Below are positions 27,920-28,462 of a stretch of 64,000 bases of DNA, piece after piece (the first letter of the stretch is position 1; every line of letters starts with the position of its first letter). The DNA is from Candidatus Bathyarchaeum sp. (GTDB taxonomy: Archaea; Thermoproteota; Bathyarchaeia; Bathyarchaeales; Bathyarchaeaceae). Location: NCBI GenBank assembly GCA_020344315.1, contig CP070820.1:319116-383115 (forward strand). The letters are read 5' to 3'. The position numbers and the translations under genes were made by a program. The notes beneath the pieces were generated by a model. It had not been told where the DNA came from and ran no database searches. It saw nothing but the letters and a program-made list of their open reading frames with translations.

Positions 27920-28462
27920 TTAAACAACATACCTGTAGGCGACGTATTTTCCTGCAGTTGCGCTCTTTCTTATTACCCTAACTACATCGCCCGGATTGGC
28001 GCCCACAGCTATTATTGCAGGGTCGGAAGCTTTGATCCGAGGCAACTGGTAAGGCTGCACCTTATATTTTTCCAGAATCATTTTTCTTTCTTCTGGTGTG
28101 AGAATTTCATGTTTCGACACGAAGTCGTGGTCGAAAACGTTGAAGGAGGGAAAGATTTTGGGAATCAGTTCTATCCCAAATTTTTTAGAGCGGGTCTTAG
28201 CGGTGTGGGTGTACTTTCCAATGGTGACAATGATGCCTTTTTCAACTTTGGCATCGTCCATGGCTTTCTTGAGTTGAGTGATGTATGCGACTCCTACCGT
28301 TCCGTCAGTGGTAACTGCCCAGATAATCGCCTTCTTATTGTCTTTCATCTTAATTTTGAAGCTAATGGTGTTCTTCTGGTCCTCTCTTTTCAGCACCTTG
28401 TAACCGCGAAGTTTTATGAGAACTTTGGTCTTCTTCTCAACTAACGTTTCTTTAGAACTCAA
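27920..28462 (-). CDS. rpoH: RNA polymerase subunit H/Rpo5 with N-terminal Rpb5-like (restriction-endonuclease-fold) extension
   Basis: The C-terminal 71 aa, [35 protein letters not shown]....GA.[24 protein letters not shown], are the canonical RpoH/Rpb5 C-domain. The N-terminal about 109 aa are absent from ordinary archaeal RpoH. TTG start is preceded by GAGGA. Confidence 0.8.
   Translation of the reverse strand: [180 protein letters not shown]

Follow-up and report, generated by a model that had tools for sequence, protein, structure and literature searches.

In known RNA polymerases the H domain docks on the largest subunit. Archaeal subunit H (RpoH or Rpo5), as exemplified by Thermococcus kodakarensis (4qiw_H) and Saccharolobus (2waq_H), is a single-domain protein of approximately 75-90 amino acids, whose gene heads the rpoH-rpoB-rpoA operon. 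Eukaryotic Rpb5 (RPABC1; yeast Rpb5, human POLR2E) and its giant-virus homologues carry in front of this H-type C-terminal domain an additional N-terminal module with a catalytically dead PD-(D/E)XK fold. The module, Rpb5-N, has been described as a 'guard rail' for downstream DNA, a place which is filled by Rpo13 in Sulfolobus (PMC3479171). Archaea are described as being without it (PMC3479171, PMC3906176, PMC1802627), and a census of PD-(D/E)XK proteins lists the Rpb5 N family for Eukaryota only (PMC3424549). Our literature searches for an archaeal Rpb5 N domain returned statements of absence only and no report of such a domain. Here we describe a gene of Candidatus Bathyarchaeum sp. which codes for an RpoH of 180 amino acids. 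It is located on contig CP070820.1 within a stretch of 64,000 nucleotides (positions 319,116 to 383,115), which is referred to as the window.

With a probability of roughly 0.75, this gene is the Bathyarchaeial rpoH/rpo5, most probably the only one, and encodes a two-domain subunit built like eukaryotic Rpb5, from which we infer the role of the N-terminal domain and its common descent with Rpb5-N. Judged by family models and profile comparisons, the protein belongs to the H/Rpb5 family through its C-terminal domain and represents an Rpb5-like variant in architecture and profile homology, although it fails the curated Rpb5_N model and is devoid of the eukaryotic elaborations. The initial annotation, which had been made from the letters of the window, proposed an RpoH with an Rpb5-like, catalytically dead N-terminal domain; profile searches, profile-profile alignment and the structural model of the full-length protein support this proposal.

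Domain composition and translation

The 180-residue open reading frame (ORF) and its TTG start at 28462, as initially annotated, were borne out. The features of the locus are the following:

27920..28462, minus strand: long rpoH/rpo5 coding sequence, 180 amino acids, TTG start at 28462-28460, TAA stop at 27920-27922
28148..28462, minus strand: N-terminal domain, residues 1-105, predicted inactivated PD-(D/E)XK (Mrr-like) fold
27923..28147, minus strand: C-terminal domain, residues 106-180, canonical RpoH/Rpo5/Rpb5-C domain
28463..28533, minus strand: conserved leader with putative promoter, AAATAGCGTAAAGTTTAAGGGTTTGCAG...TGAGGAATGAATAG, from an alignment of 14 species

The C-terminal 75 residues represent a complete, high-scoring H domain. 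Pfam family PF01191 (RNA_pol_Rpb5_C) is matched by residues 107-179 over the entire model (1-73 of 73) with an E-value of 1.6e-28 and 98.7 bits against a cut-off of 23.5, and the NCBIfam equivalog model for RpoH, NF007129, is matched as well, scoring 100.9 bits where the cut-off demands 83. With RpoH from Thermococcus/Pyrococcus (PDB sequences) the domain shares 56-58% identity, and its modelled structure superposes on archaeal RpoH chains with a root mean square deviation (rmsd) of 1.2-1.6 Å for 74 residues. Across all long forms, identity of the C-terminal domain to Thermococcus RpoH amounts to 47-68%, which fits an essential orthologue. By these family models, both of which score above their cut-offs, the window protein is a subunit H of archaeal RNA polymerase; the earlier view of residues from about 110 to 180 as a textbook RpoH domain holds.

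In contrast to the archaeal subunits of known structure, this H domain is preceded by a folded and conserved domain of 105 residues. Among 868 homologues found in the database, the best 120 are almost all 180 residues long (170-187) and share at least 77% identity along their entire length; those that bear a name are called 'subunit H' of Bathyarchaeota. The TTG codon, which directly follows an in-frame TAG, is kept in all 15 of 15 Bathyarchaeial species genomes, as is a GAGG Shine-Dalgarno-like motif (28472-28475) nine nucleotides ahead of it, while long ORFs of other clades have an ATG at the same position. Ratios of nonsynonymous to synonymous substitution rates (dN/dS) relative to the window gene lie at 0.08-0.16 in the N-terminal part (residues 2-105) and at 0.06-0.15 in the C-terminal part (residues 106-180), with dS reaching 1-1.8. 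Both domains thus evolve under the same purifying selection.

The alignment of the leader of 14 species, among which synonymous sites are near saturation, contains 43 invariant columns, nearly all of them within the last 70 nucleotides before the start codon. A TATA-like element, AAAGTTTAAGG, is found at approximately 28513-28524 upstream of the TTG. No convincing RNA structure was detected in the leader (consensus energy -3.9 kcal/mol, covariation absent, single-sequence z-score -1.7). Since covariation is absent and the energy is weak, the block is treated as a putative promoter and ribosome-binding region only. A CCUC...GAGG pairing, which would hide the ribosome-binding site, is predicted weakly and without covariation.

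Public annotations of several genomes cut the gene to its C-terminal part and thereby hide the long form, as seen for OGD57471.1 (81 residues), MGD0805021.1 (81 residues) and MBS7288294.1 (144 residues). The first of these is an internal-start call of a 182-residue ORF (locus L005, 9698-10246) and the last one an internal-start call of a 208-residue ORF (locus L031, 5506-6132), each with an ATG start and an intact N-terminal domain.

The N-terminal domain itself is assigned by Pfam to Mrr_cat (PF04471; residues 13-100, E-value 3.2e-9, 37.3 bits against a cut-off of 21) and, as a borderline case, to the inactive endonuclease family NA-iREase1 (PF22722; E-value 1e-5, 26.0-27.8 bits against a cut-off of 27). 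AlphaFold2 predicts it with a mean predicted local distance difference test score (pLDDT) of 90.5 when modelled alone, compared with 88.5 for the full-length protein, and the topology of the model, alpha-beta-beta-beta-alpha-beta-alpha-beta, is that of the PD-(D/E)XK core. In the N-domain alignments Arg19 and Gly57 are the sole invariant residues, and Gly76, Glu98 and Tyr84 are invariant or nearly so. No clade shows conserved acidic or lysine columns at strands beta-2 or beta-3, and the D...(D/E/Q)xK triad is not kept; the position of the (D/E)xK motif on beta-3 reads W-A-V, H-A-V, L-C-T, V-R-V and the like. As far as can be judged from these alignments, the domain is a non-catalytic PD-(D/E)XK fold of the Mrr type without the catalytic acid and lysine residues, in agreement with the absence of a (D/E)xK motif that had been noticed by eye.

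A search of 1.84 billion representative proteins with the N-terminal domain as query yielded only 35 clusters at 50% identity. In nearly all of these the match begins at the N-terminus, one fragment with an upstream-extended call being different. Every full-length member is an RpoH with a length of about 176-191 residues. Neither a free-standing relative nor a nuclease was found among these representatives, which suggests that the fusion is old. Likewise, no linkage to NACHT or other defence domains was seen, the N-terminal domain being always fused to the H domain. Mrr-type and NA-iREase1 proteins share the fold and the Pfam matches, with that to NA-iREase1 being borderline, and EndoMS/NucS, MspJI, AspBHI and AF1548 are structurally similar to the N-terminal domain alone, but the loss of the catalytic residues and the exclusive occurrence as an H-domain fusion set the archaeal domain apart from them.

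Comparison of the N-terminal domain with eukaryotic Rpb5

For profile comparisons, the archaeal N domains were aligned and cut before the H domain (alignment A1), a largely independent alignment was built from Asgard and other clades (A6), and eukaryotic Rpb5 N domains were aligned from sequences taken from PDB outputs (A5). Searched against 177,635 PDB sequences, the A1 profile finds Rpb5 from fly (E-value 2.5e-6), human (1.6e-5) and Arabidopsis (1e-4), with the yeasts being weaker; eukaryotic Rpb5 is the only significant match and nothing else appears at E<1. The A6 profile also matches Rpb5 (4.7e-5 to 8.5e-4), and no Mrr-type nuclease in the PDB is matched by either profile at E<=10. Direct alignment of the profiles with hhalign relates A1 to A5 with a probability of 95.1% and an E-value of 3.4e-8 over 89 columns, extending from helix 1 to the last strand, and A6 to A5 with 93.4% and 2.6e-7 (89-94 columns across both comparisons). 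Chance cannot account for the match of A1 and A5, the aligned blocks of which include LIKLRGYKV, TGIFVYQNNITPSAM and GIE/TIE. A phmmer search with the full window protein aligns residues 24-180 with residues 48-205 of Arabidopsis NRPB5 in one stretch.

The initial annotation had aligned the two proteins block by block by eye, including IELIP...FDHDFVSKH with IETFN...THHELVPKH of yeast. The same blocks are opposed in the hhalign result, and the yeast sequence is identical to that of PDB entry 1dzf_A.

The residues in common are located at specific positions of the fold. Arg19, invariant in alignments A1 and A2, aligns with yeast Arg26 of the invariant DRGY motif, the aspartate of which is not conserved, and in A6 Arg13 and Tyr15 are invariant. 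The R26E exchange in yeast Rpb5 is lethal (PMC1802627). Altogether, the motifs common to the archaeal and eukaryotic forms are RGY at the end of helix 1, a VG(V/I) turn, a T-x-x-A helix start and an I-E strand; at the helix start the Asgard and low-GC long forms read T-P-x-A as compared to eukaryotic T-P-S-A.

Structural comparison leads to the same relatives as long as both domains are included. The 33 best PDB matches of the full-length AlphaFold2 model are eukaryotic Rpb5 or its homologue from African swine fever virus, with about 200 aligned columns and a TMq of approximately 0.7-0.8 for eukaryotic Rpb5. Models of giant-virus RPB5 match equally well, and archaeal RpoH chains match the C-terminal domain only. 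The predicted full-length fold superposes on Rpb5 with a TM of 0.72-0.79.

Several differences separate the two N-terminal modules in spite of the profile-level homology to eukaryotic Rpb5 seen in both domains. The module comprises about 142 residues in yeast but about 105 residues here, and helix 1 is about 30 residues long in yeast but extends over residues 7-19 in the window protein. The module is acidic in eukaryotes and basic in Bathyarchaeia, and the archaeal domain is nearer to the Mrr_cat consensus. Based on these comparisons, the most fitting view of the archaeal domain is that of a minimal Rpb5 N module which is less derived than the eukaryotic one, and it probably shares descent with Rpb5-N. 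A transfer from eukaryotes or giant viruses was considered and appears unlikely, as the archaeal domain lacks the eukaryotic insertion and is nearer to the Mrr consensus than Rpb5-N is.

Gene position and distribution among archaea

The location of the gene alone between mntP and a ferredoxin gene, outside any rpo operon, was recognized at the outset, and both neighbours could be identified:

27280-27846: mntP, downstream neighbour of the long rpoH (PF02659, E-value 2.6e-51)
28605-28835: single-cluster ferredoxin, upstream neighbour of the long rpoH (Fer4_15, E-value 6e-15)

Farther out, an energy-coupling factor (ECF)-type S component, pantoate kinase, phosphopantetheine adenylyltransferase and a DUF763 protein are encoded on one side, and a winged-helix regulator and carbon monoxide (CO) dehydrogenase/acetyl-CoA synthase genes on the other. 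Neither rpoB nor rpoA nor a second rpoH was found in the 64-kb window. The long rpoH is located outside an rpo operon in the window and in 27 related loci, and a divergently transcribed pantoate kinase gene stays beside it down to a protein identity of 53%. In a control lineage, by comparison, a short rpoH overlaps the start of rpoB and is followed by rpoA', rpoA'', rpl30e, nusA, rps12 and rps7. Whereas the described archaeal rpoH heads its operon, the long gene thus lies off the operon behind a conserved leader and putative promoter of its own.

Three Bathyarchaeial rpoB operons were fetched with an RpoB fragment as bait, namely L040 (CP070759.1), L041 (a JGI contig) and L042 (GCA_012974985.1). 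Each of them contains rpoB, an unsplit rpoA of about 1,271 residues, rpl30e and nusA, and no sequence resembling either domain of the long RpoH was detected within 4-10 kb (tblastn, nothing below E 0.05); the slot upstream of rpoB is empty. In none of the three do rps12 and rps7 directly follow nusA. In L041 and L042, the calls of rpoB and/or rpoA are broken into two ORFs close to the N-terminus, which could reflect a frameshift or a real split, and in L040 (10001-12688) rpoB is truncated N-terminally and starts at about residue 214, probably as a result of an assembly error.

One further locus, L019 (CP070791.1, 10625-16949), shows the long rpoH followed by rpoB-rpoA, but was rejected as a case of the canonical position, the block being truncated at both ends. 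Its rpoB starts at about residue 606, its rpoA is joined in frame with the middle part of a pyridine-nucleotide-disulphide oxidoreductase, and the rpoB-rpoA block matches L042 only between the break points; judged from these joints, the block is probably a misassembly. L019 and L040 both belong to metagenome-assembled genomes (MAGs) of Bathyarchaeota termed 'complete chromosome' and need care when used as references.

In the RBG_13_52_12 clade the long rpoH is found 2-5 nucleotides behind rpoP/rpo12 (L005, 9492-9692; L003, 840-1025). The rpoP product is a zinc-ribbon protein of 61-66 residues, the best PDB matches of which are archaeal Rpo12 (1e-8). The close spacing suggests an rpoP-rpoH transcription unit in Bathyarchaeia of this type. 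These RpoP proteins carry an N-terminal extension of about 20 residues.

A strict pattern scan with one genome per species gave a single full-length long gene for each of 23 genomes, which are all Bathyarchaeia and include BA2, Candidatus Bathyarchaeum and two closed chromosomes; the patterns find close relatives only and tell little of a divergent second rpoH and nothing of taxa outside the Bathyarchaeia. More distant long forms of 176-200 residues make up most of the match list of a second search. Long forms with N domain, H domain and an acidic tail were also found in a MAG labelled Candidatus Freyarchaeota/Jordarchaeia (L031, ORF of 208 residues) and in 'Candidatus Freyrarchaeum guaymaensis' (MDO8061792.1, 209 residues), taxa which belong to the Promethearchaeati (Asgard). 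A low-GC lineage (guanine-plus-cytosine content 32%) possesses a further long form, the P0149 group. The survey of these taxa, called for by the initial annotation, indicates that the long form is the standard rpoH of many Bathyarchaeia and is also present in the Asgard Freyarchaeota/Jordarchaeia. The extra tail of the latter forms (L031, 5506-6132; P0436-P0439) comprises about 30 very acidic residues, …EEEGEELEWEEEEI, and is absent in the Bathyarchaeial forms.

Loci L029 (10001-10372) and L038 (2720-3004) represent a lineage with a short rpoH-rpoB operon, the H domain of which shares 74% identity with its counterpart in the long form P0149. Either organisms that are fairly closely related possess the two forms, or the domain has passed from one lineage to another. 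The assembly accessions of the long P0149 group and of the group with the short rpoH operon (P0291) do not overlap. RpoB fragments that are 70-83% identical to the Bathyarchaeial query (P0331, P0417, P0430) bear the NCBI labels Thorarchaeota, Dehalococcoidales bacterium and Norongarragalinales. They likely stem from mis-binned contigs, so that single MAG labels are weak evidence.

Alternative explanations and proposed role

The view that the gene is the sole Bathyarchaeial rpoH and codes for an Rpb5-like subunit has to be weighed against several other explanations and against a number of observations which do not favour it. Translation of the H domain alone from a downstream start, or a mis-joined separate gene as the origin of the N-terminal half, could be advocated on the grounds that TTG is a weak start codon and that NCBI annotation shows the C-terminal part alone in at least three MAGs. 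This explanation is extremely improbable, and H-only translation is ruled out on evolutionary grounds: the frame is unbroken in all relatives, the N domain is constrained at dN/dS values of 0.08-0.16 while dS reaches 1-1.8, the start codon and its GAGG motif persist in 15 species with ATG at the same position in other clades, and the N domain is predicted to fold with a pLDDT of 90. Even less credible is the attachment of an active nuclease to a polymerase subunit, serving for instance in defence or in cleavage of transcripts or DNA. The Mrr_cat match does exceed the Pfam gathering score, but acidic and lysine residues are unconserved at the catalytic positions in every clade, and the alternative best Pfam match is to an explicitly inactive endonuclease family. 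The possibility raised at the outset, that the N-terminal region might score to Mrr-type nucleases with intact catalytic residues and not to Rpb5_N, is therefore half borne out: Mrr_cat is matched and Rpb5_N is not, but the catalytic residues are not intact. More serious is a convergent fusion, in which archaea and the eukaryotic stem independently extended subunit H at its N-terminus with an inactive Mrr-like domain. The resemblance to Rpb5-N would then reflect a shared origin in the Mrr family, and the archaeal domain might have a different role, such as binding of a lineage-specific factor or nucleic-acid ligand. Here most of the observations against an Rpb5-like reading accumulate. Mrr_cat and NA-iREase1 are matched by 20 of 20 archaeal N domains, whereas PF03871 (RNA_pol_Rpb5_N) is not matched at E<=10 by the window protein or by 20 relatives. 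This miss is partly explained by the model covering mainly the eukaryote-specific part of Rpb5: in the yeast protein PF03871 spans residues 6-99, mostly eukaryote-specific helices and the insertion, and a faint match to Mrr_cat is seen at residues 86-128. When modelled alone, the N domain finds EndoMS/NucS (E-value 5e-5) and MspJI as best structural matches with the Rpb5 chains close behind, and the fold alone consequently does not single out Rpb5. The arrangement of the domains predicted by AlphaFold2 could reflect Rpb5 structures in its training set. Single-sequence phmmer searches of the PDB with the N domain of the window or the Asgard form find no Rpb5, which means that only profiles reach it. 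The reverse search is weak: a hidden Markov model (HMM) of six eukaryotic N domains, run against 1,750 local sequences, finds the window protein at an E-value of 2.4e-3 and 304 of about 310 long RpoH at 14-25 bits, together with one decoy at 7e-4. The decoy, a 216-residue ORF (L010, 2458-3108), is the sole clear non-RpoH match and may be a PD-(D/E)XK protein. The stretch of about 18-23 residues inserted behind the first strand of Rpb5 is absent (hhalign gap opposite yeast residues 36-58 and 65-75), as is the long helix 1, and the domain has a patchy spread over Bathyarchaeia, Freyarchaeota/Jordarchaeia and one low-GC lineage. Nevertheless, convergence is unlikely. The protein agrees with Rpb5 in domain order, in lost catalysis and in the predicted geometry between the domains, the profiles match Rpb5 but no PDB nuclease of the Mrr type at E<10, the specific motifs RGY, VG(V/I), TPxA (in the Asgard forms) and IE are shared, and the lack of a free-standing close relative among 1.84 billion representatives speaks for an old fusion.

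The remaining explanation concerns the number of genes. The initial annotation had suggested that the gene may be a second, specialised copy; the genome would then also contain a canonical short rpoH, and the long protein would serve as an alternative or accessory subunit under particular conditions. Such a paralogue would account for the position outside the rpo operon in the window and in the 27 related loci, and a short rpoH heading rpoB with 74% identity to the C domain of P0149 does exist in another lineage. In addition, a Bathyarchaeota Rpo5 listed in a 2026 paper, which does not treat the length of Rpo5, has an accession only two numbers from that of Rpo1, by which some Bathyarchaeia may keep an operon-linked rpoH, and the three rpoB operons described above may stem from genomes other than those with the long form; both points weigh against a single relocated gene. 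On the other side, the slot upstream of rpoB is empty in these three operons, a single locus per genome was found in the scan including two closed chromosomes (within the reach of patterns that find close relatives only), the C domain is conserved like that of an orthologue and passes the equivalog cut-off, the long gene adjoins rpoP in one clade, and the short 'RpoH' records of 81 and 144 residues at NCBI are truncated calls of the long ORF. With the long form being standard in Bathyarchaeia, the idea of a second specialised copy finds no support and is rather improbable. Most probably, as far as gene order can tell, the long gene is the sole rpoH, which has moved out of the operon.

If the gene is indeed the sole rpoH, it would have left the rpoH-rpoB-rpoA operon and kept a stable place beside genes of coenzyme A (CoA) biosynthesis, with its own promoter, leader and TTG start. 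For the protein we infer incorporation into the polymerase. The H domain would be attached to the largest subunit where the lower jaw has its base, as it is in solved archaeal and eukaryotic polymerases, and the N domain would reach from it into the space that separates Rpo5 from the Rpo1 jaw. In this position it may serve as a non-catalytic 'guard rail' or as a surface that touches the downstream DNA duplex, by analogy with Rpb5-N in RNA polymerase II (Pol II). The N domain of the window protein has a net charge of +15 and an isoelectric point of 10.1, and this strong positive charge fits DNA contact. Across the family, however, the net charge ranges from +15 to -4, and it is negative in eukaryotes, which speaks against DNA contact through charge being universal and leaves factor binding as an alternative role.

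A functional analogue of this arrangement would be Rpo13 of Sulfolobales, for which a location in this same space and contact with double-stranded DNA downstream have been proposed (PMC3479171), and which is basic like the N domain described here. Rpo13 differs in being a small helix-turn-helix protein that has a gene of its own and is seemingly unrelated in sequence and fold. If the proposed placement is correct, the N domain fills the 'void between Rpo5 and Rpo1' that is taken by Rpo13 in Sulfolobus.

As a tentative extension, held at somewhat less than even odds, the two-domain architecture of Rpb5 may predate eukaryotes. A dead Mrr-type domain would have joined subunit H in an archaeal ancestor, which Thermoproteota (Bathyarchaeia) and Asgard archaea (Freyarchaeota/Jordarchaeia) had in common, or the fusion would have been exchanged between the two, and the lower jaw of eukaryotic Pol I, II and III would descend from this fusion, with the insertion and the longer first helix being added later. 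In that case, the Bathyarchaeial and Freyarchaeial polymerases would be intermediates that still live today and guard the downstream DNA with a rail of eukaryotic kind, the lower jaw of eukaryotes would have its origin in the archaea, and a simpler natural model for the role of the N module would be at hand.

Apart from the rpoH locus, the window contains several further genes. A five-gene CO dehydrogenase/acetyl-CoA synthase cluster is located near the rpoH locus at 19835-26774, and the archaeal CoA-biosynthesis genes for pantoate kinase and phosphopantetheine adenylyltransferase occupy 29773-31182. More distant from the rpoH locus, a radical-SAM/SPASM protein of 705 residues is encoded at 17318-19435 and a NosD/beta-helix protein of 1,057 residues at 34732-37905.

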